A stretch of 64,000 bases of DNA from NCBI GenBank assembly GCA_964016885.1, contig OZ024741.1:104594001-104658000 (forward strand), in the 5' to 3' direction. The notes under the pieces are model-generated. The model searched no databases and was not told the DNA's origin. It saw only the letters and a list, made by a program, of their open reading frames with translations. This document shows positions 1,234 to 60,140 of the stretch, piece after piece. How positions within the stretch are numbered: the first letter of the stretch is position 1; every line of letters starts with the position of its first letter. A program made the position numbers and the translations under genes. This stretch comes from Eledone cirrhosa. Lineage: Eukaryota.

Positions 1234-2628
1234 TCACCTTGGACGGGTTGAGCCGGCTTCTTCCCTTGTCCTGACGGCATCCCGAACCATGGCAGCCCAC
1301 GCACGACGATCCCGGGCTAGGCCACTGGAGATAACGAGCCAGTCACGGTTCAATCGGCGCAGGCCGACCACATGCGGACCTGAGAGTTCGGAGTGCTGTG
1401 TTGAGAGTGTAGTCAATGGCGTAGTTAAAGAGAGTTGGCGATACCACACACCCCTGCCGAACACCGGTCCCAACATCGAAGACTCCATCTCCTCACCTTA
1501 GCCCCTCACTCGAGCCCGAGTACACTGGTAGTAGCCTTGTATGAGACGAAGCAGTTTCACTGGGATGCCGTCCACCTGCATTATATGCCATAGGGCTTCC
1601 TGATCTACCGAGTCGTAGGCAGCTGCAAAGTCGATGAAGCAGAGGACGATAGGCTGTTGATGTGCCCACCGTTGTTCCAGGACATGCCGGGGAATGAAGA
1701 TTTGATCAACTCACCCCCTCTCCGGACGGAAGCCGCCCTGAGAAGGATGGGTATGGTCATCACAGATGGCCTGGAACCTCTTCAGCAGAAGAATTGCGAA
1801 GGTTTTGGCAGCAACGTCAATTAAACTGATACCCTGTAGTTGGAACAGTTTCCTGTTGCTCTTTTTGAAGAAGGGAAGGAGAGTTGCCTCGCTCCAGTCA
1901 CCAGGGAACCGCTCCGTCGCCCACACCGAGGAGAAGACTCGATGGAGCCAAGCTGTGAAAATATCAGGCTCGGCCTTGTAGACCTCAGCTGGAACGCCAT
2001 CCTCGCCCGGTGCCTTGTTGTTCCGGAGATGTGTCAGGACACCACGTACCTCCTCGACCGTTGGAGGGGCAGTGCTGCACCCGTATTCTCCTCCGGAAGG
2101 CTGCACGTAGGTTGGCATGGATGGTAGCGGTTGGTTGAGCAGCTCAGAGAAATGGTCCCGCCATCGGTCTAGCCAGTCATTAAGATTGGTAATGACCGCC
2201 CCGTTCCAATCACGGATCGTCTCGCTTATACCCGTACTGCTTCAGCTGGTCCACTTCACCAGTTGGTAGAGCTTGCGCGAGTCACCACAGGCTGCTGTGC
2301 TCTCCGTCTGCTGCGCAAACTCGCGCCAGTGTGCATTCCAATCGTCCCGAATAGCCCGAGATGTGCGACGTCGGAGATCTCGAAGATTGGATGCATACTC
2401 GAGTCGGACCACTCTCGCTCTCTCCGCGAGTTCAAGAGTGCCGCCAGAGATCCAGTCCCAATGGCGTCTTTGGGTCGACCCGAGATGCTCCCTGGCCACC
2501 TCAACCCTCGCCGCCCTGAGCGCATTCCACTCCTGCTCTGGTAGCTGTTCCACTTCGTTACTCAGCATTTGGAATCGGTTTCGCAGCTCTAGCCGGAAAG
2601 CATTTCCAGCATCGAGCTTGAGTCGTGC
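1234..2628 (-). mobile_element. Decayed RTE-clade LINE reverse transcriptase fragment
   Basis: Minus-strand ORF pieces: NNKAPGEDGVPAEVYK, W..ATLLPFFKK, GISLIDVAAK, QGGFRPERG, downstream CFIDFAAAYDSVDQ and GVRQG-like motifs; frameshifts present. Confidence 0.85.
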
Positions 2629-3568
2629 GGATGTGTGACTTAGTAAGATTATTCCTTCTCCACACACTTAAAGAGAAATTTCCTTCCCATAATATCGGTT
2701 TATACCGTGACGACGGATTGGCAGTTTCTCATACCACCAACGACCATAACCTTGATAAATTCCGTAAAGATTTAATCAATACTTTTGCTAATCTTAACCT
2801 TAAAATCACTATAGATACGAACCTTACCAATGCTAACTTTCTTGATATTAATCTTGATCTACTTACTGCCTCTTTTAAACCTTATCATAAACCTAACGAG
2901 AATCTAAAATATATACACAAAGAGTCTTGCCATCCCCCTATAGTTTTTAAAAATCTTATTCCCAATATTAGCCGTAGGATTTCTACTTTAACTTCTTCTC
3001 TAGACATTTTTAATAAAGCTGCCCCTTATTATAATAAAGCCCTCACTAACAGCGGCTTTACAGAACAGATTACATATTTACCTACCCCTCCCCCTAAAAC
3101 TAATCACAATAATAGGAAAAGGAAAATTATGTGGTTTACACCCCCCTTCTCTCTAACTGTCAAAACTAATGTAGGAAGGAAATTCCTTGACCTCCTAGAT
3201 AAGCATTTTCCCCCTAATCATAGATATTATAAGATATTTAATAGAAATGTAGTTAAAATTAGTTACTCTTGCTGCCCATCTATGAGGTCTAAAATCACCA
3301 ACTCTAATCGTACGAGAATAAATCCAGGATGCAGTTGCAGAAAGCCGGATGAATGCCCATTACAGGGCAAATGTAACACCAAATCCATTGTATATGAGGC
3401 CAAAGTAACACCTTTGATTAACAACCAGCCGGCCAGGAGTGAATGATATGTTGGTATGACTCAAGACAGGTTCAAAACCAGGTTTTATGCACATGTCACT
3501 TCTTTTAAACACTCCGATAAAAGAACAGCAACGGCCCTCGCTAATAAGGTGTGGCAATTCAAAATTAA

Positions 3569-4582: not shown

Positions 4583-4588
<6 letters not shown>

Positions 4589-6680
4589 GGAAAAAATGAA
4601 ACGAAATTTCATTTCCCACTCTTAGTACGGCTATTACTTAAATATAAGTATCATCATCATCATCATCATCATCAACGTTTAACGTCCGTGTTCCACGCTT
4701 GCATGGGTTTGGACGGGGGTAGTCCCACTTGAGGCAAGAGTGATTGTCTTGCTCGCATAGGACTGTCTGGCAGGTTTTCTACAGTTGGATGCCCTTCCTA
4801 ACACCAACCACATTTACAGTGTGGGTCTGGGAGGTTTTTACCGTGTTGCCTACACGGCCACATTACAGCGTGGACTGTGTGTTTTTTTTGTCGTGACACC
4901 TACACGATCTCATTTGTTTCGGCCTCGATGGCGCGGCACCAACATAACTTTACATAGAACGGGGTGGTGCGGATGGGGTAGGGGTGGGGGTGGTGGGACG
5001 GGGTGTATTTTGTTAGGGATGCCTACTGGCTGGAGTAGGTTTTACTATATATTTAGGTAAGGCGGGTCTTCTCTGTTACTGAGTACCGCCAAAGGTCTCG
5101 GTCCAGTGACATTGTCTTGGAGAGGTGTAAGTGTGTGATGTCGGAGTTTATCAGCTCGTCCCAGGTTTTTCTAGGTCTGCCTATTCCGTGACTACCGTCT
5201 ATCTTTATTGCCCTGCACTTTGTTATACAGCTATCGACTTTCATGCGCATCACGTGTCCATACCAACGTAGCCTTCTCTCGAGTAAACAACATCTGATCC
5301 CTCTTATCTCTAATTTTTTCCTTAGTTCGTTTATGCTTTGCCGTTCACGTATATTACTGTTACACATCCAGCGGAGCATGCAAGCTTCGTTCCTCTCTAG
5401 TCTGCGTATATCCTCTGCACACAATGCCCAGGTCTCACTGCCATGCAGCATTGCTGTTCGTATGCAGGCATCGTACAACCTGCCTTTCATTTTTAGTGAG
5501 AACCCTTTAGCAGCTAATAGTGGTATAAGCTCTCTGAACTTTTTCCAACCAGTTCTGACTCTAGCTACAGTACTTTCAGAGCACCCTCCCCCACTGCTGA
5601 TTTTATCGCCCAGGTAACGGAAGCTGTCCACTATTTCTATAGAACCCTCTGGGCAATTGAAAGAGCTAGTAGCTTGTGGGCACTTGCTGCTACTTATTGC
5701 ACCAGAGCACCGGCCACATGTAAAATCTATGTTCTTAGTTAGCTTACCTGTGATCCCACTACATCTTTTATGCACCCATACTTTGCATTTAGGACATAAA
5801 ATGGAGTTTCTACCTACGCCTTTCCTACACACCGAGCACGACCATTTCCCAGAAGGGACCGCCGCCTTGTTTTCTTTCCTACAAACTAGTACTTTGGTCT
5901 TAGCCAGGTTAATTTTAAGTCCTTTTGACTCTAGGCCGTGCTTCCATGTTTGGAATTTCTTCTCTAGCTCGGCCATTGATTCCGCTATGAGTGTCAGGTC
6001 GTCTGCGTATAGGAGTTCCCATGGGCAGCCTGTCTTGAACTCCTCTGTTATAGCCTGAAGGGCAATAATAAATAGTAGTGGGCTGAGAACAGAGCCCTGA
6101 TGGACGCCAACTTTTACGCTAAACTCTTCACTATATTCGTTGTTAATTCTAACCTTGCTGACTGTTTCTTTATACATGGCTTGTATAGCCCTCACAAGCC
6201 ATTCGTCAACGCCTAGTTTTCTAAGAGCCCACCAGATAATGGAGTGGGGGACTCTGTCGAAGGCTTTCTCCAAGTCGACAAAAGCTAAGTAGAGGGGTTT
6301 ACCTTTAGCTAGGTACTTCTCCTGTAGTTGTCGTACTATGAAAAGAGCGTCTGTGGTACTTTTGCCTGACACAAACCCGAACTGCATTTCATCTAGGTCA
6401 ATTCTCTCTCTGATTAGTTGCGCTATTACTTTTTCCGTGACCTTCATGACCTGGTCGATTAATTTAATGCCTCTATAGTTACTCCTATCTAGGGCGTCTC
6501 CTTTACCCTTATAACAGTTAACGATGATGCTGCTATGCCAAGTATGTATACGCATATACATATATGTACACAGACGTACAGTAGTATGTATATATATATA
6601 TACATACATGCACACATATATATATGTACGTATGGATTCACCGAACATTTATTATAATGCTCGGTGTGTTTGTAAAATAA
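4583..6680 (-). repeat. Partial family-A HHR repeat (4583-4651 and 6540-6680) split by an RTE insertion
   Basis: Both pieces match the 32078-32280 copy; AAGTAT is duplicated at both sides of the RTE. Confidence 0.75.
4652..6540 (-). mobile_element. 5'-truncated RTE LINE with open RT (YADD) region and 3' tail
   Basis: ORF 5053-6540: NYRGIKL, QFGF, FVDLEKAFD, GVHQGSVLSP, LLYADD, Cys-rich C..C insert, FRYLG, RRLRWYGHV, GRPRKTW. The N-terminal MFGES.. residues come from the flanking repeat. Confidence 0.95.
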
Positions 6681-8952: not shown

Positions 8953-11900
8953 TTGTTTAACGTCTATCTTCCACGCTAGCATGGGTTAGATGGGAGTTGT
9001 CCCAATTTGAGACAAGATTGGTTGCGTGACCATGTCTCGCTCGTATAGAACTATCTGGCATGTTTTCTACGGCTGGATGCCCTTCCTAACAGCAACCACG
9101 TTTACAGTGTGGACTGGGAACTTTTTACTGTGTTACCTACACGACCAGTGACATTGTCTTAGAGAGGTGCAAGTGTGTAAGGTCGGAATTTATCAAATCG
9201 TCCCAGGTTTTTCTGGGTCTACCTACTCCGTAACTTCCATCAATTTTGATCGCCCTGCACTTTTTTATACAGCTGTCGTCTTTCATGCGCATCACGTGAC
9301 CATACCAACGTAGTCTTCTCTCAAGTAAACAGCATCTGATCCCTCTTGTTCCTAATTTTTCACTTAGTTCATTTATGTTTTGACATTCACGTATATTACT
9401 ATTACACATCCAACGGAGCATGCATGCTTCGTTCCTTTCTTGTCTGCGCAGGTCCTCTGCACGCAACGCCCATGTCTCACTGCCATGTAACATTGGTGTT
9501 CGTATACAGGCATCATACAATTTAGCTTTCGTTTTTAGAGAGAAACCTTTTGTGGCCAACAGCGGTATAAGCTCTCTGAACTTTTTCCATCCCATTCTGA
9601 CACTGGCTACTGTACTTTCATAGCACCTTCCACCACTGCTGATTCTGTCACCCAGGTAACGGAAAGTGTCCACTATTTCTATAGAACCATCTGGGCAATA
9701 GAAGGGGCTAGTATCCTGTGGGCACTTGCTACTTATTGCACCCGAGCATCGGCCACATAAAATCTACGTTCTTAGATAGCTTACCTGTGATTCCACTACA
9801 TCTTTTATGTACCCATAGTTTGCAGTTGGGACATAACATGGAATTTCGACCTACACCCTTCCTACACACTGAGCATGGCCATTTCCCAGAGGGCACCTGT
9901 GCTCTATTTTCCTTTCTACATACTAGAACTTTAGTCTTAGACAAGTTAACTTTAAGGCCTTTTGATTCTAGGCCATGCTTCAATATTTGGAATTTCTTCT
10001 TTAGTTCAGCCATAGATTCAGCTATGAGAGTTAGGTCATCTGCATATAGAAGTCCCCATGGGCAGCCGGTCTTAAACTCTTCTGTTATAGCGTGAAGGGC
10101 AATAATAAATAGGAAGGGGCTAAGGACAGAGCCTTGATGAACACTAACTTTTACACTATATTCATTATTAATTCTAATCTTACTGACTGTTTCTTTATAC
10201 ATGGCTTGTATAGCTCTCACAAGCCATTCATCAACACCTAGTTTTCTAAGAGCCCACCAGATAATGGAGCGGGGGCTCTGTCAAAGGCTTTCTCCAAGTC
10301 AACAAAAGCTAAGTATAGGGGTTTACTTTTAGCTAGGTACTTCTCCTGTAGTTGTCGTACAATGAAAAGAGCGTCTGTGGTACTTTTACCTGACACAAAC
10401 CCGAACTGCATTTCATCTAGATCAATTCTCTCTCTGATTAGTTGCGCTATTACTTTTTCTGTGACCTTCATGACCTGGTCGATTAATTTAATGCCTCTAT
10501 AGTTACCCCTATCTAGGGCATCTCCTTTACCCTTGTAGCAGTTAATGATGATGCTGCTACGCCAGTCCTTCGGAACGACCCCATTCTGTATGACTTGGTT
10601 TACTATCCGGATGACCATAGTGTGTCCCACCGTTCCAGATGCTTTCAGCATTTCAGCAACTATTTCCGAAGGCCCAGCCGCCTTACCTGTCTTTATATCT
10701 TTGATTGCCTTACTTATTATACTACCTTCAACTAGCATTGCTGCTCCCTCTATTGGATCGATGTGGGGGAGACTGTCTTTCTCCCATTTATTCTCCTCAT
10801 TTAGGAGCCTTTCGTAGTGACACTTCCAAGCTACCTTCTTATCAGCGTCAGAGATGGCAAGTACACCATCATCATTAAGGACACACTTCTCCCCGACAAT
10901 ATCACGGTTTTCCTTGACACATTGCCTAGCAATCCTGAATACCTCACGTTTTTGGTCCTCGCGTTGTAGAACATGCTTGAACTTTCTTTCCTCTGCTGCC
11001 CTTCTTGTGAAGTACACTTGTCTCCTAGCTTCCCCCCTGGCCACTTGATAGTCTTCTCTACTTCCCCCATCCCGCCATAATTTCTAAGCCTGCTTTTTGG
11101 CCTTAATTGACTCCTCCACCTTACTGTTCCACCACCACGTTACTCTCCTCCTGCCTGCCCCAGCCACAGACATCATCTGCCCCCTTCAGCAGGTTAGCTT
11201 TCAGGAATTCCCACTGTTCCTCTATATTGTACGACTCTAATTGCACTTCCTTACTGTCAAAAGCATCAAGTAATATGCTTTAAAATTTATTACTCATTGT
11301 GGGGTCCTTTAGCTTCCATATTTTTCTCCTGAGGATAGTCCTCCTCTGTTGTCGAGTACGTCTTGTCCTGACTACGAGGTCGCTGACTATGAGTCCATGT
11401 TGGGATGTGGATTCTTCATGGGGGAGGGATTTAGTGTTTACGACAGACACTCTATCACGTCTTCTGGTAAGGATATAATCTATCTGACTGGCGTGTTCCC
11501 CTGATCTATAGGTGATCAAGTGATTGTCTCGTTTTTTGAAGTTAGTGTTACAGACAGTTAGGTTATTTGCGTCACAGAATTCCAGGATTCTGGCGCCTTC
11601 CTCATTTCTAGTACCAAACCCATAGCCTCCATGGATTCCGTCATAGCCATCACAATGTTGTCCAACGTGACCATTTAGGTCGCCAGCAATAATTATGTAG
11701 TCACTGTCGGTTATTTGGGAGGTCGTGAGCATCAATGTCTCATAGAATCTGTCTTTTATAACGCCAGGCAGTCCGGAATGGAGTGCGTACGCAGATATTA
11801 CTGTCACCGTAGTTCTATTTAAGACAAGTCTTATTTTAATTATTCTGTCGATCACTCTATTTACGTCTATTACCTTATCTACCCATTTTTCTGCTAATAT

Positions 11901-12400
11901 GATTCCTACTCCACCCAGCCCATTGTCATTTCCCGCCCAGAAAAGCTTATAGCATCGTTTTTTACCCACAATGAATCTAGCAGACCCGCCCCTCCACCTA
12001 GTCTCTTGGATACAGCAAACATCAACCTCCTTACGTTCAAGCATTTCTACAACCTCGTTAGAGCGACCTTTTAAGGTGCCTACATTCATGGTACCAACTC
12101 TGAAGTTTTGGATTGCGTTTGGTGGGTGGGAACGGTGGGGCGCGGGGAGGGGTGAGGGGGCTGGGGTTGCGGTTATGTTGGCCATCCGCGGCCGAAACAA
12201 AGAGGAGGAGTCCTTGCCTTTTCGTTCGGCAGCATGAGGTGAATTTGTCTTTATCTTTGGCATTGTCACTCAGTGTCCAGATTTTTTTCAGACTCTCCAG
12301 AATTTCCTAGTCCATCCATCATATCGAAAGGCAACCGGAAGAAGTGATAGCATAGGCCGCTGACTTATGATTGGTTGAAATAATAATAATAGTGGTGAGT
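8950..12400 (-). mobile_element. Near full-length RTE LINE (AP endonuclease plus RT), frameshifted
   Basis: 11280-12269 APE motifs (GTMNVGTL, CIQETRW, GDLNGHVG, SQIDY); 10238-11044, 9729-10220 and 9137-9673 carry RT motifs with YADD; shared 3' tail. Confidence 0.95.
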
Positions 12401-12970: not shown

Positions 12971-13740
12971 AGAGTTCTATTTAAATTGTTGGGATACAAC
13001 AAGCAAATATTTTTATAACTGATATAAAGCACTCAACAAATATTTGGAGTAAAAATACGATATTAACAAATGGAAACTATATTTATAAAACCATATTTAT
13101 TTCATTATACATATTTCAAGGACACCAAGTTAAATTATGGTGTGCTTTCATCAGATAAAATATAATATAGATCAGTTTTATAAATAAATATTGACATACC
13201 CTTACTGTTGGAAGCTCCCGGATAGTGGAGTTATAGCGTTAATTATTAGTATTGGATATTTTTAAAATAAGCCGTTGGGTTACGGAGAAATAGAAAGACA
13301 AAGAAGGAGAGAGAGCGGAATAAAGAGAGAGAGAAATATGGAGAGAGAGAGGAGACGGAAAAATGAGAGAGAACGAAAAACTCTAAGTCATATCTTGTTG
13401 AGTTAACTTAACAATTGAGATGAAATGAATAAATAAAAATTAATCATGAATGGAATATACATATATAATATGAGAAATTTAACCATTGTTTAAATATGAT
13501 AAGATGTTTGGTTAATCAGTTAAATATTGAGATCAATATATTAAAAATTGGGATCTATATATTAAGAAATCCATATTTAAAGATCTATATATTACATAAC
13601 ATATACACACGTAAAAAATACGTACATATAAATATATATACACACTTATAAAAATACATATACATATCTAACTACGTATATAACATACATACAAAATATA
13701 AAGGATTCTTTAATTTAAGTTAAGATATAGGAATCTTATA
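12968..13740 (-). mobile_element. Family-B PLE 3' UTR/pLTR fragment
   Basis: 12968-13200 is near-identical (reverse complement) to 61135-61350; on the minus strand a pyrimidine tract lies upstream of the HHR; abuts (TA)n. Confidence 0.7.
13098..13162 (-). ncRNA. Type I hammerhead ribozyme, family B
   Basis: Minus strand: TATTTTAT CTGATGA AAGCACACCA..TGGTGTCCTT GAAA TATGTA TA ATGAAATA. Confidence 0.85.
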
Positions 13741-13893: not shown

Positions 13894-13922
<29 letters not shown>

Positions 13923-13925
<3 letters not shown>

Positions 13926-14645
13926 AATGGAATAGAATGAAACGAAATTTCATTTCTCACTCTTAGTACGGCACTTACTTAAATGTAAGTATGTATGTAT
14001 ACGTACATACATATATGTATACAGACGTACAGTAGCATGCATATATATACATACAGGCACACATATATATATATATGCACGTATCAGTTTACCGAACATT
14101 TATTATAATGCTCGGTTTGTTCGTTTGTAAACAAACAAACAGCCTGAATTACGCCGTACAGTGTTTAGGCAACCACGTCACCTTTTTGTTCAACACTGAC
14201 ACAGGAACGATGTACTAGTTTCAAGCTTATTAGCTATCGTCAGCACCGTATACCTTTCTGCCAGATGGTTGAACGTCCGAAAGTATATACTTTCCTTATG
14301 AAAATTAACGGCTGAGCAGCCTAATTTGCATATCGAGTGAGTTCAGTCGGCCAGGCGCACCGAAAACGATAAATGGAATAGAATGAAACGAAATTTCATT
14401 TCTCACTCTTAGTATGGCACTTACTTAAATGTAAGTATGTATGTATACGTACATACATATATGTATGTATACAGACGTACAGGCAATTCAGGCTGTTTGT
14501 TTGTTTACAAACGAACAAACCGAGCATTATAATAAATGTTCGGTAAACTGATACGTGCATATATATATGTGTGCCTGTATGTATATATATACATGCTACT
14601 GTACGTCTGTATACATATATGTATGTACGTATACATACATACTTA
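13923..14645 (-). mobile_element. Family-A ORF-less HHR element: 446-bp unit, partial tandem copy and inverted fragment
   Basis: TGGAATAGAATGAAACGAAATTTC at 13928 and 14374; 14485-14645 is the reverse complement of about 13985-14150; flanked by (TA)n. Confidence 0.8.
14207..14249 (-). ncRNA. Minimal type I hammerhead ribozyme, family A
   Basis: Minus strand: ACGGTG CTGACGA TAGCTAATAAGCTT GAAA CTAG TA CATCGT. Confidence 0.85.
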
Positions 14646-14647
14646 TT

Positions 14648-14744
<97 letters not shown>

Positions 14745-15238: not shown

Positions 15239-16867
15239 CATACGTTAAGACGGGCGTTCTGACCTGGGTAAACTTAGCAAGAACATTCTAGACAGAGTGA
15301 TACAGCAAATTAAGGACTTGAATTGTTTACCTGGCTTGACCTTGTGGAAGGGAACTGGGGAGGTCATTGAGTGGTTTAATGAAATTAAATATAACAATAA
15401 TAATAAATTTATTCAACTAGATATTGCTAACTACTATTCATCCATTACCCCTAATCTACTTAATAAGGCACTAAATTACGCATTCAAGCATACAGACCTA
15501 ACTAGCAATGAAATGCACATTATATTATCGGCAAGGAAAACTTTGATAGAATTTAATAATGGACTAGGGCAGATAGAGATAATAATTTTGACATTACTAT
15601 GGGATCATCAGACTCAGCTCAGGTAACGGACCTTGTGGGCCTATTTATAATTAATTCGCTGCATAGGAAAATACCCGGTGTTACCGGAGGTTTATATAGA
15701 GATGACATGCTTTTACTTATTGAAAATAATAACTCTGAACTAAATAAGAAAAGAAAACAAATTATACAATTTTTTAATTACCTTAATCTAAAAATAGAAA
15801 TTGAGAATAACCATAGAATAGTCAATTTCCTAGACGTAACATTTAATCTCAACACATGTCTTCACTATCCATTTCACAAGTTAAATGAAAACTTGAATTA
15901 TGTCAATTTTAGCTCCAATCACCCCAGATCTGTCAAAAATACTATAGTGAACTCTGTTCAAAAACGTATCTCTAGAATCTCTTCCAATAAAAATATTTTT
16001 GACGAAAAAGCCCAGTATTATAATGAAGCTTTAGCTAGAGCAGGATATAGTGATACAATTATGTACATCGATAATAGACAAACTAACCAAAATAACAACA
16101 ATTTTAATTACAGTAACAACTTTAACAACTATAATAGAAAGCACTACAATAATTTCAAAAACCAGAAAAGAAATAGAACTAGAAATATAATATGGTTTGC
16201 CCCCCCCCCCCCTTTCTCACTAAACATTAAAACCCACATCGCTAAACTATTTTTTAATGCTCTTGACAAACGCTTCCCTAGAACACATAAGTATCACTCA
16301 ATTTTTAATAGACATACTATAAAATTAACGTACTCGTCCACCAAAAATTTAGCACAAAATATTAATAGAATAAATAATAGGAATCTAAAACCTAGCCAAA
16401 ATACCGAAAATAGCCTAAACAATATTCAACTAAAAAACTGTAACTGTAGAGATAGATCTAAATGTCCGCTAAATAACAATTGCTTAGTTAAAAATATAAT
16501 ATACAACTGTAATGTTAGAACTGATTTAAATTCTTTTAATTATGTTGGTTCCACCTCGACAGAATTTAAACTTCGCTATAATAATCACAAAAATTCTTTC
16601 ACGGATCCAAATAAAAAATCCTCAACATCGCTGTCAGGGTTACTCTGGCAACTTAAGCATGATAAAGTTGGATATTCGATGGTTTGGAATATAGTCTCAA
16701 AAGGGATTCCTTTTAATTCCTCTTCTGAGACATGTGACCTCTGCGCGGAGGAGATATTCTTTATACTAAAATCTAAAAATTCCCTTAATTTACGAACCAA
16801 TTTATTCAGCTGTTGCAGACATAGATTGAACTCAACATTTAAATATAAATATAAATTTAAAATGTAG
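15237..16867 (+). mobile_element. Penelope-like element (Naiad-like) RT plus GIY-YIG, 5'-truncated, one frameshift near 15560
   Basis: FIQLDIANYYSSI, MGSSDSAQVTDLVG, GLYRDD, NFLDV, CNCR..CPL..C, NIIY..YVGST..FK.RY.NH..SF, CDLC.EE, CRH C-terminus. Confidence 0.92.
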
Positions 16868-18544: not shown

Positions 18545-20545
18545 CAGGATCGCAAGATAGAAAAGAAGGTAGCATGGAAGTGCCACTATGAAACATTACT
18601 GAATGAGGAAAATGCATGGGAAGAATCAAGTTTGTCACAAGTCGACCAAAGAGAGGGTCCAACTATACAAATTAGCAGTAGTAAGTAAGGTAATCAAGGA
18701 TATGAAGTCAGGCAGGGCAGCTGGTCCCTCAGAGATAGTTGCTGAGATGTTGAAAGCTTCAGGTATGGTGGGCTACACCATAGTCTTCCACATTGTAAAT
18801 CAAGTTATACAAAGTGGTATTATACCCAATGACTGGTGTAGCAGTATCATGATAAACTGATACAAGGGCAAAGGTGATGTTTTAGATAGAGAAAACTATA
18901 GAGACATTAAGTTAGTTTACCAGGTTATGAAGGTCTCTAAAAGAGTCATAGCTCAGCTGATTAGGGACCGAGTTAAATTTGTTCCAGGTAAACGTACCAC
19001 AGATGCCCTCTTCCTTGTAAGACAACTGCAGAAGTACCTAGCTAAGAATATCCCCCCACTTGGCTTTCGTAAACCTTTTGACAGAATCGCTGTTCCATTA
19101 TCTGGTGGGCTCTTAGAAAACTAGGAATTGATGAATGACTTGTAAAGGCAGTACAAGCCATGTATAGAAGAACAGTCAGAATTAACAATGACTATAGTGA
19201 AGAATTTAGCATGCAGGTTGGTTTCCCTCAGAGCTCAATTCTTAGCCCTCTTCTGTTTATTATCATTCTGCTGGCAATAACAGATGAGTTTAAGACTGGC
19301 TGCTCATGAGAACTCCTGTATGCTGAATTAGAGAAAGAATTCCAAATAGGGAAGCATAGCCTAGAATCAAAAGGTCTTAAAGTCAACTTGGCAAAGACTA
19401 AAGTCCTAGTAAGTAGAAGGGAAAAAAGGGCCCAGATCTCCTCTGGGAAATGGCCCTGCTCAGTGTACAGAAAAGGAGTAGGTAGAAATTCCATTCTATG
19501 TCTCATATGCAAGCAATGGGTACACAAGATATGTAGTGGGATCTCAGGCAGGTTAACAAAGAATGTAGGTTTTAAATGTAGCCAGTGCACAGGGGCAGCA
19601 AGTAGCAAGAGCCCTGAGGATACCATCACCTTCAAATGTCCAGAGGCCTCGGTAGAAGTGGTAGATAGTTTCTGTTATCTGGGTGACCAAATCAGCAGTG
19701 GGAGAGGGTGTTCTGAAAGCACAGTAACCAAAGTGATATTGAGTTGGAGAAAGTTCAGGGAGCTACTACCGCTGCTAACTACAAAAGGTTTTTTCCTCAA
19801 AATGTAAGGTAGTCTGTATGATGCATGTATACGAACAACAATGTTGTACAGTAGCAAGACCTGGGTGCTATGTGCTGAGGATCTGCAAAGATTGGAAAGA
19901 AATGAAGTCTCCATGCTTCAATGGATGTGCAATAGCAATATACGTGAACGGCAAAGCATAAACATACTGCATAAGAAATTAGACATAAGAGGGACCAGAT
20001 GCAATGTACAGGAGAGGAGATTGCGTTGGTATGGATATGTGATGCATATGAAGGATGACAGCTGTATAAAAAGTTGATGGTAGCCATGGAGTAGGCAGGT
20101 CTAGGAAAATTTAGGATAAGTTAATAAAAGCTGACCTTGCACAATTACACCTCACCAAGACGATGACGCAGGACTGCGACCTCTGGCACTATGCAGTACT
20201 ATAGAAGACCCACCCTTCCATATGCTTGAGCCGAGGCATGTATCTAATAGGCAACACCTTCTTCTACTATTTTCTCTCCCATACACCTTCCTTGCTGTAA
20301 CTGTCCCTATTACCTATGTCCTCAATTTCCCCAACCCTCCCTAGTTCCCACCCAAGACTATGAAGTGGTCGTGTAGGTGCCACGACAAAAAGCATCCAGC
20401 ACACACTGTAAATGTGGTTGGCGTTAGGAAGGGTATCCAGCTGTAGAAACGAAGCCAAAATCAGCCCTGTGTGAATGCAACAAGGTCCTCTGACCTGATC
20501 TCTCTGAAAGGGTCAACCCATCCTACTCATGCTAGCGTGGAAAGT
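18545..20545 (+). mobile_element. Degenerate RTE LINE copy
   Basis: Fragmented ORFs homologous to 5053-6540 (GPSEIVAEMLK, GKWPCSV, RRLRWYG) with stops and frameshifts; 3' tail present. Confidence 0.9.
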
Positions 20546-32077: not shown

Positions 32078-32502
32078 AAACGGAAAAAATGAAACGAAAT
32101 TTCATTTCCCACTCTTGGTACGGCTGTTACTTAAATATAAGTATGTACACGTACATACATATATGTATACAGACGTACAGTAGTATGTATATATATATAC
32201 ATACATGCACACATATATATATATGTACGTATGGATTCACCGAACATTTATTATAATGCTCGGTGTGCTTGTAAAATAACATCCCGTATTAAGCCGTAGT
32301 GTCTAACAACCATCGTTGCTCGTTTGTTCAACACTGACAAAGGAACGCTGTACTAGTTTCAAGCTTATTAGCTATCGCCAGCAACGTATACCTTCCTGCC
32401 AGATGATTGAACGTCTGAAAATATATACTTTCCTTATGCATATTAACGGCTGAGCAGTCTAATTTGCATATCGAGTGGGTTAATCGGCCGGGTGCACCGA
32501 AA
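32078..32502 (-). mobile_element. Family-A HHR element, single monomer
   Basis: Colinear with 13925-14365; (TA)n on both sides. Confidence 0.8.
32345..32387 (-). ncRNA. Family-A hammerhead with core mutation (CTGGCGA)
   Basis: Minus strand: ACGTTG CTGGCGA TAGCTAATAAGCTT GAAA CTAG TA CAGCGT. Confidence 0.7.
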
Positions 32503-33929: not shown

Positions 33930-35745
33930 GTTACACGACCACTTTACATTATAGGGGTGGGCGAATTTTGTTGTGGCACACGACCACTTTACATTATAGG
34001 GGTGGGCGAATTTTGTTGTGGCACACGACCACTTTACAGTGTGTGCTGGGTGCTTTTTGTCCTCATACTTACATGATTACTTTACTGTGTGAGCTGGGTG
34101 CTTTTTGTCGTGAACCTACAAAAACACTTTACAGTGTGTGTTGGGTGCTCATCATGGCACCAAAATGACCTCTTTATGGTGTGGGTTGGGGATTTGGGGA
34201 GGTAGATCTAGGGATGTGGTGTTAGGACATGGGATGGGTACTAGGACGTGGGAGGGGTGATGGAAAGGAAGGGGGAACATACTAGATGTATGCCTGAGCC
34301 CTTGCATATGGGAAGGCGGGTCATCTGTATTACTGCATAATGCCAGAGAACATGGTCCTGTGTCATCGCCTTTGAGAGGTGCAATGGTGCAAGGTCAGCT
34401 TTTATCACTTCTACCCAAGTCTTCCTACTCCATAGATTCCATCAACTTTGAGCGTTCTGCACCTTTTTATACAACTGTCATCCTTCATATGGCCATACCA
34501 ACACAATCTCCTCTCTTGCACACTGCATCTGATCCCTCTTATGCCCAATGTATCTCTCAGTTCATGTATATTACTATTACACTCCATTGGTGCCTGCAGG
34601 CTTCATGTATTTCCAATCTTTGCAGGTCCTCTGCACACAGCATCTGCCTTTCATTTTGAGGGAAAACCCTTTTGTAGTTAGCAGCAGCAGTAGCTCACTG
34701 AACTTTCTCTATCCTGTTCTTTCAGATACTCTCCTCTACTGCTGATTTGGTCACCCAGGTAATGGAAACTTATTTCTACAGAGCTGTCTGGGAATTTGAA
34801 GGAGCTAGTATCCTATGGGCTCTTGCTATTTACTGCACCTGTGCATCGGCCACATATAAAACCTACATTCTTGATAGACTGCCTGTGATCCCACTATATT
34901 TTTTATGTACTTATAGCTTGCATTTGGAACATAGGGTGGAATTTCTACCTATTTATTTCCTGCACACTGAGTAATGCCATTTCTGTAAGTTAATTTGAAG
35001 ACCTATTGATTCTAGGCCATGCTTTCAGACTTAGAATTTCTTCTTTAATTCTGCCATAGATTCAGCTATAAGGGTTAGATCATCTGCATACAGAAGTTCC
35101 AATGGACAGCCAGTTTTACACCACTCTGTTATAGCCTTTAGGGTAATAAACAGGAGAGGGCTAATGACGGAGCCCTGATGGACACCTATCCGTATGCTAA
35201 ATTCTTCACTGTAGTCACTGTTAATTATAACCTTGCTGACTGCTCCTCTATACATGGCTTCTACTGCCTTCACAAGCCACACATCTACCCTTAGTTTTCT
35301 AAAAGCTCACCAGATAATGGAAAGGGGAAATCTTTTTTCCAGGTCCACAAAAGACAAGTAGAGGCGTTTACCTTTAACTAAGTACTTCTCCTGCAGTTGC
35401 CTCACAAGGAAGAGGGCATCTGTGGTACCTTTACCTGGTACAAATCCAAACTGCATCTAATCTAGGTTAACTTGATCCCTAATCAGCTGTGCAATAACTT
35501 TTGTTGTGGCCTTCATAACCTGGTCATCCAACTTAATGCCTCTATAGCTTTCTCTGTCTAGAGATTCTCCTTTGCCCGTGTAGTAGTTGATGCTGCTGCT
35601 ATGCCAGTCATTTGGTATGACACCATTTTGTATAACTTGGTTAACAATACAGGTGACTATGGCATAACCCACCATTCCTGATGCTTTTCAGCATCTTGGC
35701 AACTATCCCCGATGGTCCAGTTGCCTTGCCTGTCTTCATATCCCG
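33930..35745 (-). mobile_element. Degenerate RTE LINE copy
   Basis: GVHQGSVISP, LLYADD, YRGIKL fragments; tail with short internal tandem repeats. Confidence 0.88.
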
Positions 35746-48207: not shown

Positions 48208-48212
<5 letters not shown>

Positions 48213-48725
48213 TGGAATAGAATGAAACGAAATTTCATTTCTCACTCTTATTACGGCACTTACTTAAATGTAAGTATGTATGTATACGTACATACATATA
48301 TGTATACAGACGTACAGTAGTATGTATATATATACATACATGCACACATATATATATGCACGTATCGGTTTAACGAACATTTATTATAATGCTCGGGTTG
48401 TTTGTTTGTAAACAAATTACGCCGTACAGTGTTTAGGCAACCACGTCACCTTTTTGTTCAACACTGACACAGGAACGATGTACTAGTTTCAAGCTTATTA
48501 GCTATCGTCAGCATCGTATACCTTCCTGCCAGATGGTTGAACGTCTGAAAGTATATACTTTCCTTATGCATATTAACGGCTGAGCAGCCTAATTTGCATA
48601 TCGAGTGAGTTAAGTCGGCCGGGCACACCGAAAACGATAACTGGAATAGAATGAAACGAAATTTCATTTCTCACTCTTAGTACGACAGTTACTTAAATGT
48701 AAGTATGTATGTACGTATACATACA
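48208..48725 (-). mobile_element. Family-A HHR element: 429-bp unit plus partial tandem copy
   Basis: TGGAATAGAATGAAACG at 48213 and 48642; lies between (TA)n tracts. Confidence 0.8.
48475..48517 (-). ncRNA. Minimal type I hammerhead ribozyme, family A (perfect stem I)
   Basis: Minus strand: ACGATG CTGACGA TAGCTAATAAGCTT GAAA CTAG TA CATCGT. Confidence 0.88.
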
Positions 48726-48733
48726 TACATGCT

Positions 48734-48773
<40 letters not shown>

Positions 48774-57604: not shown

Positions 57605-57624
57605 AAAAAATATATATATATATA

Positions 57625-60140
57625 CAATGGGAGCATCCGATTCATCCCAATTGACAGATTTAATTGGTATCTTTATTTTGAACTCTTTGAATCGGAAAAT
57701 TCCTCAACTTCGCGGTGGAATTTATCGTGACGATGGACTCTTTTCTATCTTAAATTGCAACATAATTAACCTCAATATTATTAAGAACTATATACGTAAT
57801 CTCTTTAACCAACATAACTTAAAAATTGAATTTGATAACAGCATCAAACTAGCTAATTTCTTGGATGTATCTCTTAATCTTGACACAGGCCTATATTACC
57901 CTTACCATAAAAACAATGAGAACCTAAATTATGTTAATTTTAAATTTAACCACCCCACTAATATTAAGAATGCTATAGTTAGTAATATTGGAAAAAGAAT
58001 ATCTAACCTATCTTCTAATAAAAACATCTTTGATGCTAACGCCAATTACTATAATAACGCGCTTTCTAAAGCCGGTTATCCTGATAAAATCAAATATAGT
58101 AAAGAAACAAATTCTAGATCTTACAGTAGAATAATTAATCATGATCATTCCAATAACTTTAATAAAAGACCTAGATACAAAAACATAATCTGGTATAATG
58201 CTCCTTTCTCCATCTCTATTAATAATAATATTCCTAAATTATTCTTTAGTGCCTTAAATAAATGCTTCCTCCCTCACATATCTATAGTAAAATATTTAAC
58301 AAACACACTATAAAATTTTCCTATTCTACCTCCTCCAACATCTCCAACATTATCTCTAAACACAACAATAAAATACTAAATACTAAATCTCTTCCTTCCA
58401 ACACTGAATATCATAATAATAGTAATAGTACTCCCGACGTCATTGTTAACTCTAGGCTAATTTCTGCAAACCCAAATACAACGTCAAACGCAACTTCGCT
58501 AAATGTTCTTAATCCCATTCTAAATCAAGAAACTATTATTCCTATCGTAAATAACTTCTCCAATCCAATTCCTTCTATAGATAACACTAGGTCATTTGTT
58601 AATAACTCTGTTAATCTCACTAATCGCAATTGCAATTGCCCTGTTAAAAATAAATGTCCTCTCAACAACCATTGTCTTGAAAAAAACTTAATCTACGAAT
58701 GTAAAGTTATAACTGACACCAATTCCTTTACCTATTTTGGCTCCACTTCCACCTCCTTTAAAGCTCGTCTTTATAATCATCATTCGTCTTTTAAATACCA
58801 ACTTAAAAGAACCAACACGGCCCTGTCAGAACTCATATGGTCCTTAAAAGACAAAAATATTAACTATAACATCTCTTGGAAGAAGGTTTTTTCTGCTTCT
58901 CCATACTTGAATAGTTCTCTATCCAAGACATGCAATCTCTGTTTATGTGAAAAATTTACCATTATATCTAATTTAGATTCTATAATAAATAGACGCACTG
59001 ACTTGTTTTCTCTCTGCTTTCATAAATTCCACAGAACATTCCATAAAGTATACAGCTAATATCTAATACTTTATCAATTTAAAATCCTTTTCTCAAAGGC
59101 ACACATATATATACATATATATTTCTTTAAAAATATACCCATCTTTCTACCTTATTTCAATGTTATTTATTATACATTATATAATACCAGTTACTCATTC
59201 TATATCACTCCTATTTATCACTTCCCTTTCTTTCTTTTTTCCTTTTTTTCTTTTCTTTTTTTCTTTTTCTTTTAATTTCTAACCTCTAATCTGTACCTTT
59301 TCTTCCTAGACACTTCTCAATTATCATTGTGCCTAACGTAGAAACAATTATTACTCAGCACAATATATTCTTACTTCATATCACCTTTAAAAAATCCTTC
59401 GTAAACATAAACATTTTTTTGACGTTAGATTATTCATCCTCAATTCATTATTTTTTCTCCCTTTCATGCTCATCTAACTTATACATATTACACTTATTCA
59501 TCACTCTTCTACTTCTTTCACAATATATCCTTAATCACATTACTATTGCTACATTTTTATATTTTTTAATAATACATATCAACAATTTCTTTCCATCGCA
59601 CATATTATTAAACCCTTAAATATTATTCTTAATACATATTAACAATTTCTTTTCATCGCACATATTATTAAACCCTTAAATATACAAACCTTAATTTAAC
59701 ATTATTCTAAAATTTTTCTCTTCGTTAATTTTCAAATTCTTTTAATTTATATATTATCTTCCAACGGTTTTTTAACCTCTCTATGTAAAACAATATATTT
59801 TTCTCAGTTATAAAAGCTATTTCTCTCTCTCTATCACCCATCTCTCCTCCTATCTCATCCTTCCTCATTATACTCCTCCCCTCCACTTTTTACTCTCATC
59901 TCCTCCTCTTTTTCATCTTTTCCACCCCCACCCTCAATTTTTCCCAATATCACACATCAATCTAAAACTACTTTTCATATGTTGATTTAAAACGGCACCA
60001 TTCACAAGTGTGTTTTAACCTTCATATCATGTCTCCCTATTTTATCTGACGAAAACGCAAATGTTATTGCATGATGATATTTGTTTTTGAAATGCGCATA
60101 ATAAAATACATGGAACTCTTTTAACCATCTTTTGATCTTA
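57625..60140 (+). mobile_element. Penelope-like element (Naiad-like), 5'-truncated, with 3' UTR and HHR
   Basis: MGASDS, GIYRDDGL, NFLDV, frameshift near 58270, CNCP..CPL..C, NLIY..YFGST..FK.R.YNH, CNLCLCEK; HHR about 1 kb downstream. Confidence 0.92.
60038..60108 (+). ncRNA. Type I hammerhead ribozyme in PLE 3' end
   Basis: TATTTTAT CTGACGA AAACGCAAATGTTATT GCAT GATGATATTTGTTTTT GAAA TGCGCA TA ATAAAATA; palindromic stem III ATGCGCAT. Confidence 0.87.

Follow-up and report, generated by a model that had tools for sequence, protein, structure and literature searches.

A repeat that carries a hammerhead ribozyme motif and no credible protein-coding frame occurs several times in a 64-kb stretch of the genome of Eledone cirrhosa (GCA_964016885.1, contig OZ024741.1, positions 104,594,001 to 104,658,000; here called the window; the assembly measures 3.0 Gb), which raises the question of what kind of element it is and by which enzyme, and from which form of RNA, it has been copied. 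A reading made from the sequence only had regarded this repeat, family A, as a non-autonomous element mobilised by a Penelope-like element (PLE). The analysis described here points the same way. Family A, a non-coding hammerhead repeat with two (TA)n ends, is likely a retrozyme of the non-autonomous kind, for which a PLE reverse transcriptase/endonuclease would do the copying, on a unit-length and probably circular RNA template. By the sequence features tested it would join the animal non-LTR retrozymes and non-autonomous PLEs, a class that is itself already known.

Layout and abundance of family A

BLAST of positions 13923-14645 against the window, together with inspection of the sequence, gave four family A copies (Table 1). 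Unit numbering follows the minus strand of window 14370-13925, so that unit position p equals window position 14371 - p. The shared end of all four copies abuts (TA)n, as the sequence-only reading had described, but two fixed ends exist rather than one. The copies at 13923 and 48208 indeed contain a full unit followed by a partial one in tandem, joined in both at the same junction apart from one differing base. The inverted fragment noted for the copy at 13923 (14485-14645) is present as well, but it is not the sole case, because the copy at 48208 also has a short inverted arm. The copy at 32078 had been called an exact monomer; it lacks the first 5 bases and represents one point in a broad length distribution (30-1937 nt), not a special class. 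The fourth copy consists of unit 236-446 only, interrupted between 4651 and 6540 by a LINE piece of 1.9 kb (RVT_1) with a 6-bp duplication. The LINE family, with a reverse transcriptase and a PHD-finger match, has several fragments in the window (4652-6539, 9137-12269, 18560-20412 and 34128-35743), one of which is the piece splitting the copy at 4583.

Table 1 Features of family A copies in the window
Feature	Position in window	Strand	Remark
Long-end arm: partial unit (339-446), then full 446-nt unit, long 3' end in (TA)n	13925..14482	-	
Short-end (inverted) arm: unit 221-385/391, short 3' end in (TA)n	14485..14645	+	
55-nt 'tail' between short and long 3' ends, holding hairpin 13936-13956	13925..13980	-	
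Head-to-tail junction of units	14362..14381	-	9,882 exact matches genome-wide
12-nt block (unit 39-50), octamer-containing, identical to -78 element of a host U6 gene	14321..14332	-	
TATA-like box, 42 nt after the block	14283..14290	-	
Type I hammerhead motif, predicted cut between 14213 and 14212	14207..14249	-	Pattern; cleavage predicted
Second copy: full 429-nt unit, partial tandem unit and short inverted arm at about 48704-48738	48211..48738	-	
Hammerhead of second copy	48475-48517	-	Pattern
Third copy: near-monomer of the older subfamily, without first 5 unit bases	32078..32502	-	
Hammerhead of third copy, core CUGG in place of CUGA	32345-32387	-	Pattern
Fourth copy, 3' piece (unit 379-446); copy 5'-truncated, without hammerhead	4585..4651	-	
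Fourth copy, 5' piece (unit 236-384), beyond the inserted LINE fragment	6540..6676	-	

The claim that the unit holds no credible ORF was borne out, since ATG-started frames span 30-69 codons and differ between copies. The unit has a GC content of 36-38 %, and it folds far better than shuffled sequences (z -7.05), to which a TA-rich hairpin contributes in part. Weak Rfam matches of microRNA type to this hairpin were taken as chance.

One 43-nt hammerhead per complete unit had been proposed. The motif is present on the minus strand, but the core of the copy at 32078 is altered, by a change that we take to be inactivating, and the fragment at 4583 lacks a hammerhead. The motif was called by pattern and not by a library model: Rfam returned no match in the window at gathering score, and no hammerhead family was among the 73 weak matches over 13900-14700. 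The motif at 14207..14249 has a 6-bp stem I, an intact core and a U.U pair under a 4-bp stem II. Helix III is self-complementary (palindromic) and minimal, too short to hold in a monomer; published hammerheads with such a short palindromic helix III cleave as dimers. At one pair of stem I, 310 of 326 segments were G-U (128), U-G (114) or A-U (68), besides 7 other pairs and 9 non-pairs, a variation that probably reflects two or three events only. At loci not chosen on the hammerhead, minor alleles amounted to 4.0 % in the hammerhead core, a figure that owes part to one array, against 6.7-12.4 % in four other regions.

The genome-wide count that the sequence-only reading had called for gave 9,756 exact matches to the 32-nt hammerhead core, 17,487 to the 21-nt 3' hairpin and 9,882 to the 20-nt tandem junction, with none for the reversed control of each; these figures, which count motifs and not insertions, far exceed chance. 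Recurrence of the tandem junction, on which that reading had been staked, is thus clear. Family A is present as thousands of dispersed copies, and a clear family piece was met in 3 of 20 arbitrary 10-kb stretches of the genome. Identity was complete over 289 nt at seven of 40 scored loci. The 65 full units, 417-472 nt in length, contain two main subfamilies of 30 and 24 members with 96-97 % identity within each; in one array the units measure 460-511 nt. Insertions are mostly smaller than 2.5 units, while arrays of at least nine units are also present (L459, L460, L462). Short family pieces were seen at low depth in two sequencing runs of other organisms.

Insertion ends and the RNA template

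A total of 277 insertions was chained from BLAST pieces after removal of overlapping loci. A first set gave 142 of them, and another 125 loci, of which 121 had hits, added 135. The loci were chosen by similarity, exact motifs or 5'-end patterns, and the sample is therefore not random. In 129 insertions the copies are arranged head to head, 144 have a single orientation and 4 are irregular; an LTR layout was not seen in any of them. Two fixed 3' ends were found, at unit 446 (long) and unit 391 (short), 55 nt apart, and TATA follows within 12 nt of the 3' end in 315 of 359 typed ends. Both ends could be typed in 103 of the 129 head-to-head insertions, 26 having an untyped end, and these comprise 99 with one long and one short end, 3 with two long ends and 1 with two short ends. 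In the first set alone, this pairing of a long with a short end was seen in 45 of the 46 that could be typed (p = 7e-13). Truncation at the 5' side is variable, and partial tandems accompany the head-to-head inverted copies. Arms that stop at 44-70 nt, near the short start, were more frequent among long-end arms (13/99) than among short-end arms (2/99), as if both starts sometimes collided on one RNA.

The paired long and short ends match the 'tail' known from one of the inverted ends of PLEs (PMC3846280). In vitro, a PLE used two internal start sites for reverse transcription, and both target strands were cut and extended (PMC11167929). PLE-type mobilisation of family A is thus supported by the (TA)n targeting, the partial tandems, the head-to-head arms and the paired long and short ends taken together, in line with the proposal of the sequence-only reading. 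What looked like a cluster of 5' ends at unit position 1 was mostly a BLAST artefact, at least 5 matching bases running past the junction in 22 of 29 such arms. The idea that one arm is a snap-back copy of the other was rejected because arms span parts absent from their partners.

The form of the RNA template was approached through the predicted cut site. Only 1 of 200 5' ends lies near it (unit 150-166), in a set in which most loci had been chosen for an intact core, which biases one arm. A genome-wide pattern test found 38 copies starting exactly at the cut site and 60 at a control position, counts that are not normalised. Among segments with both anchors the cut site is seamless in 103 of 104; 15 further segments lack one anchor. 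Opposite arms of one insertion were discordant at 176 of 3,622 polymorphic positions (4.9 %), compared to 23 % in same-subfamily controls, and tandem units of one insertion at 169 of 3,883 (4.4 %), compared to 22 %. Pairs of different subfamilies within an insertion numbered 5 of 161 for arms and 6 of 167 for tandem units (11/328 in total).

Rare variants, present in at most 4 insertions, were tested in 162 insertions with overlapping segments. Of the 46 variants common to all covering segments, 22 were A>G and 3 were T>C (p = 1.6e-4), the A>G changes falling at 14 loci and 19 sites, whereas the 657 variants seen in one segment only included 63 A>G and 58 T>C. The total counts of such editing-like changes are small. 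The shared excess was found between tandem units only (13 A>G vs 3 T>C, p = 0.02) as well as across arms (9 vs 0). It persisted when loci picked on a stem II change were excluded (18 vs 2 in the 144 insertions left, p = 4e-4); in the first, smaller sample alone it was not significant (9 vs 3, p = 0.15). A 5' T or A precedes 20 of the 22 shared A>G sites, compared to 69/100 in the unit, which we take to be the preference of ADAR. One hyper-changed segment among 632 (L356) has 19 A>G and 2 T>C changes, four of them in both arms, and no mirror case was met among these segments; L301 has 11 A>G but also 6 T>C changes common to its units. We read the A>G bias as marking the minus strand as the RNA strand, and the shared changes as traces of one edited monomer RNA that was copied more than once, in the present insertion or in its ancestor; shared edits may also have been inherited from a parent locus. 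Repeated copying of a single edited monomer RNA, which is likely a circle, would be expected to give an excess of shared A>G without a unit-specific excess.

Unit-by-unit editing of a linear multimer should give the opposite split, an A>G excess specific to units. It is therefore rather unlikely that family A is a PLE passenger for which long source arrays supply an uncut linear multimer RNA as template, with a hammerhead incidental to insertion: the predicted excess is absent, the shared excess is seen even between tandem units only, and the core and the stem I pairing are kept across subfamilies. There are points in favour of such a template. A PLE in vitro used uncut RNA as its main template, and ribozyme mutants inserted normally (PMC11167929). 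Arrays of at least nine units exist, and the scarcity of 5' ends at the cut site fits an uncut multimer too. Furthermore, two-unit periodicity was found in L141 and L459, mixed variants in L462 and a unit of another lineage in L001; such higher-order periods and mixed or foreign units need multimer templates or later local duplication and, like the 11 of 328 pairs of different subfamilies, are at odds with copying from one monomer circle only. Some units in the L141, L459 and L462 arrays have a weakened stem I or changed cut sites. These higher-order arrays could come from circles that skip a weak ribozyme, or from later duplication.

Still less probable is a ribozyme-cut linear monomer on which the reverse transcriptase jumps from the 5' end to the 3' end of the same molecule and so makes multimers without ligation. 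Such jumping predicts the same sharing of edits as a circle, and a few arrays (L462, L459) have substitutions right at the cut site. However, 5' ends do not pile up at the cut site in either test and indels are absent there, so that the jumps would need to be both near-perfect and near-obligate. The sequence-only reading had allowed a unit-length RNA that was linear or circular. A linear RNA read to its cut end is disfavoured by the results at the cut site, and a circle would be the favoured form.

Proposed cycle and search for a partner element

Copying from a circle could proceed as follows. An arm with two hammerheads would give rise to a minus-strand transcript, either through read-through or from a U6-like block. 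Two hammerheads lie within one arm in 43 of the 277 sampled insertions, and these insertions could serve as monomer-releasing loci. The hammerheads, probably acting as a dimer via the palindromic helix III, would excise the monomer, which a host ligase would close into a circle, by analogy with published retrozymes. The RNA would at times be A-to-I edited, as the strand-biased A>G changes suggest. A PLE protein would then nick both (TA)n strands, and for each strand reverse transcription would begin at a separate internal site, the two sites lying 55 nt apart; the ends are observed and the enzyme is presumed. The two cDNAs would extend for differing lengths round the template and past the sealed cut site, to be joined head to head unless one of them is lost, the products of this last step being those observed.

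The U6-like block is a lead for a promoter, suggested by sequence likeness. Its 12 nt match the -78 block of one host U6 gene exactly and those of two others closely, and they are absent from the upstream regions of U1 and U2 (0/8 loci). The spacing from block to TATA-like box is 42 nt in the unit and 46-48 nt in three host U6 promoters, thus 4-6 nt shorter in family A. The alignment of the block has a p of 0.01-0.05 over the first 125 nt and is not significant over the whole unit. No excess of 5' ends was found at the predicted transcription start near unit 110, and T-runs in the unit are such that Pol III could stop before the next hammerhead. In the host U6 genes themselves (L464-L466 upstream) the octamer-like block sits at -77 to -79 and the TATA box at about -31, and host U1 and U2 have a different, TCAGT-containing block near -57. 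It is a tentative proposal, on balance doubtful, that family A is a self-promoted circular SINE, with an internal U6-type promoter, a circle made by ribozyme cutting and ligation, and a pair of PLE enzymes starting at two fixed sites on one circle, one for each target strand. If this were true, the genome would document, in the manner of fossils, single edited RNA circles as well as the formation of PLE head-to-head copies and tails.

A partner was sought by tblastn of six PLE protein pieces against the sampled loci, 60 of which were fetched with longer stretches (mostly about 4.5 kb upstream), the rest with about 1.5 kb. Same-strand PLE protein matches within 2.5 kb upstream were found at 10 sampled loci, at variable distance and in 9 cases behind a microsatellite run. 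The sequence-only reading had asked whether any copy joins a reverse transcriptase ORF; no sampled copy forms the terminus of a PLE ORF, and the arrangement of an RT plus GIY-YIG ORF between pLTRs was not seen in the sample. At one locus (L392:1310-3001) a fragment of a PLE ORF, truncated on either side, lies between two head-to-head family A arms with no microsatellite between. The hammerhead of this PLE family is a different one, and its 66-nt tail is likewise unrelated to the family A unit. The locus may be a template-switch chimera and is the sole lead to a partner. That the unit is instead the terminal repeat or 3' UTR of an autonomous PLE, and the copies its 5'-truncated products, is highly improbable, for although hammerheads and tails of this kind occur at PLE termini (PMC3846280), Xenopus retrozymes are homologous to pLTRs (bioRxiv 10.64898/2026.07.22.740005) and in the L392 chimera a PLE ORF fragment abuts the unit with no microsatellite between them, what lies upstream of a unit is another unit (9,882 exact junctions vs 9,756 exact cores), the upstream PLE matches lie at variable distances and nearly all behind microsatellites, and the hammerhead and ends of the L392 family are unrelated to the unit.

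Termini shared with an autonomous PLE were found in none of four families compared by BLAST and of two more compared by eye, in a genome that holds more families than were sampled. The candidates set aside on this ground are three Hydra-like families of the window, a family with C-terminal GIY-YIG, the L392 family and the L180 family. A tail motif common to family A and Hydra-like families was noticed by eye and dropped, as it is not kept in the older subfamily. Two relaxed hammerhead patterns returned a second mini-element and point variants of family A, and no ORF-linked relative. Intact (TA)n-targeting PLE ORFs of 714-821 aa are abundant in the genome. The window holds three Hydra-like PLE ORF fragments (2622-3446, 15560-16867 and 57606-59059), each with many intact genome relatives of that length. 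For the window ORFs Pfam gave no family at E 0.001, and their Hydra clade label rests on RWK-like, DKT and CxCX5C motifs, judged by eye and not by a tree. Hammerhead cores of other PLE families were seen at window positions 13154, 18095, 23054, 56065, 60046, 61071, 61184, 61624, 61708 and 62929, several of them in inverted pairs with long and short ends.

Relation to known elements

Family A resembles the metazoan non-LTR retrozymes of coral, mussel and axolotl in its non-coding head-to-tail units of a few hundred bases, for which about 150-450 bp is the range of the class, with a GC content below 50 % (Cervera and de la Pena 2020, PMC7229834; PMC7761336), and in having one type I hammerhead per unit and thousands of copies beside autonomous PLEs (PMC7229834). 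The weak palindromic helix III is shared with HHR_Amex1 and the U.U pair at the base of stem II with HHR_Amex2 (PMC7229834). Family A differs in that most insertions have 1-2.5 units and are often two-armed, with PLE-type long and short ends in (TA)n; the words 'inverted', 'head-to-head' and 'microsatellite' have 0 occurrences in the available part of PMC7229834. Retrozymes seem promoter-less (PMC7761336 (review)), in contrast to the U6-like block of family A. Circular RNA and cleavage were shown for metazoan retrozymes (PMC7229834) and are predicted for family A. Newt satellite 2 is also a hammerhead repeat with an internal snRNA-type promoter, cited as Pol II (Coats, Zhang and Epstein 1994, as cited in PMC2220036), while the block of family A matches the region upstream of host U6 and not that of U1 or U2.

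The EN+ PLEs (PMC3846280; PMC8557442; PMC11167929) share with family A the partial tandem, the head-to-head inverted copy, the tail and the two internal starts of reverse transcription, and PLEs of the Hydra and Naiad clades share its (TA)n target (PMC8557442). However, family A has no ORF, and its tail measures 55 nt compared to 30-40 nt in EN+ PLEs. Its hammerhead lies about 230 nt upstream of the short end, a distance that is about 35-50 nt in Hydra-like PLE families from the same genome. In Chlamydomonas, MRC1 and further non-autonomous PLEs of the Chlamys type are likewise ORF-less passengers, with pLTRs and multicopy head-to-tail insertions, but they have 3' sequence in common with autonomous families and belong to a clade mostly without canonical hammerheads (PMC8557442).

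That PLEs mobilise retrozymes is an idea put forward in 2014 and again in 2020, and a 2026 preprint argues for it on grounds of homology (bioRxiv 10.64898/2026.07.22.740005). In that study Li, Clavereau and Pollet reached the same conclusion on PLE dependence and described monomers and dimers dispersed over chromosomes; their case was built on co-occurrence and pLTR homology in Xenopus, with no mollusc in the part available, and local tandem growth was proposed. The present case rests on insertion anatomy and the sharing of edits, and the families compared yielded no homologous pLTR. In the literature consulted, both the enzyme that spreads animal retrozymes and the circle as template are proposals. 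No account of family A, or of edit-sharing among retrozyme units, was found in the texts consulted, whose supplements could list cephalopod families. Thousands of young family A copies bear the insertion signature of PLEs, and the long-noted tail of PLEs is now quantified as a near-strict rule of one long and one short end. Two sharp predictions follow, namely a circle of 420-470 nt sealed at one known site, and two reverse transcription starts 55 nt apart, one per strand.

The second mini-element lies outside the window (L029:1925-2708 and L247-L276, e.g. G000:C1:5388706-5392670) and has no alignable similarity to family A. It has a 310-bp unit, with 15,017 pattern matches, and the same hammerhead build as family A, with a U.U under stem II and a palindromic loop III. 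It forms long head-to-head arrays with a tail of 36-41 nt at one end.
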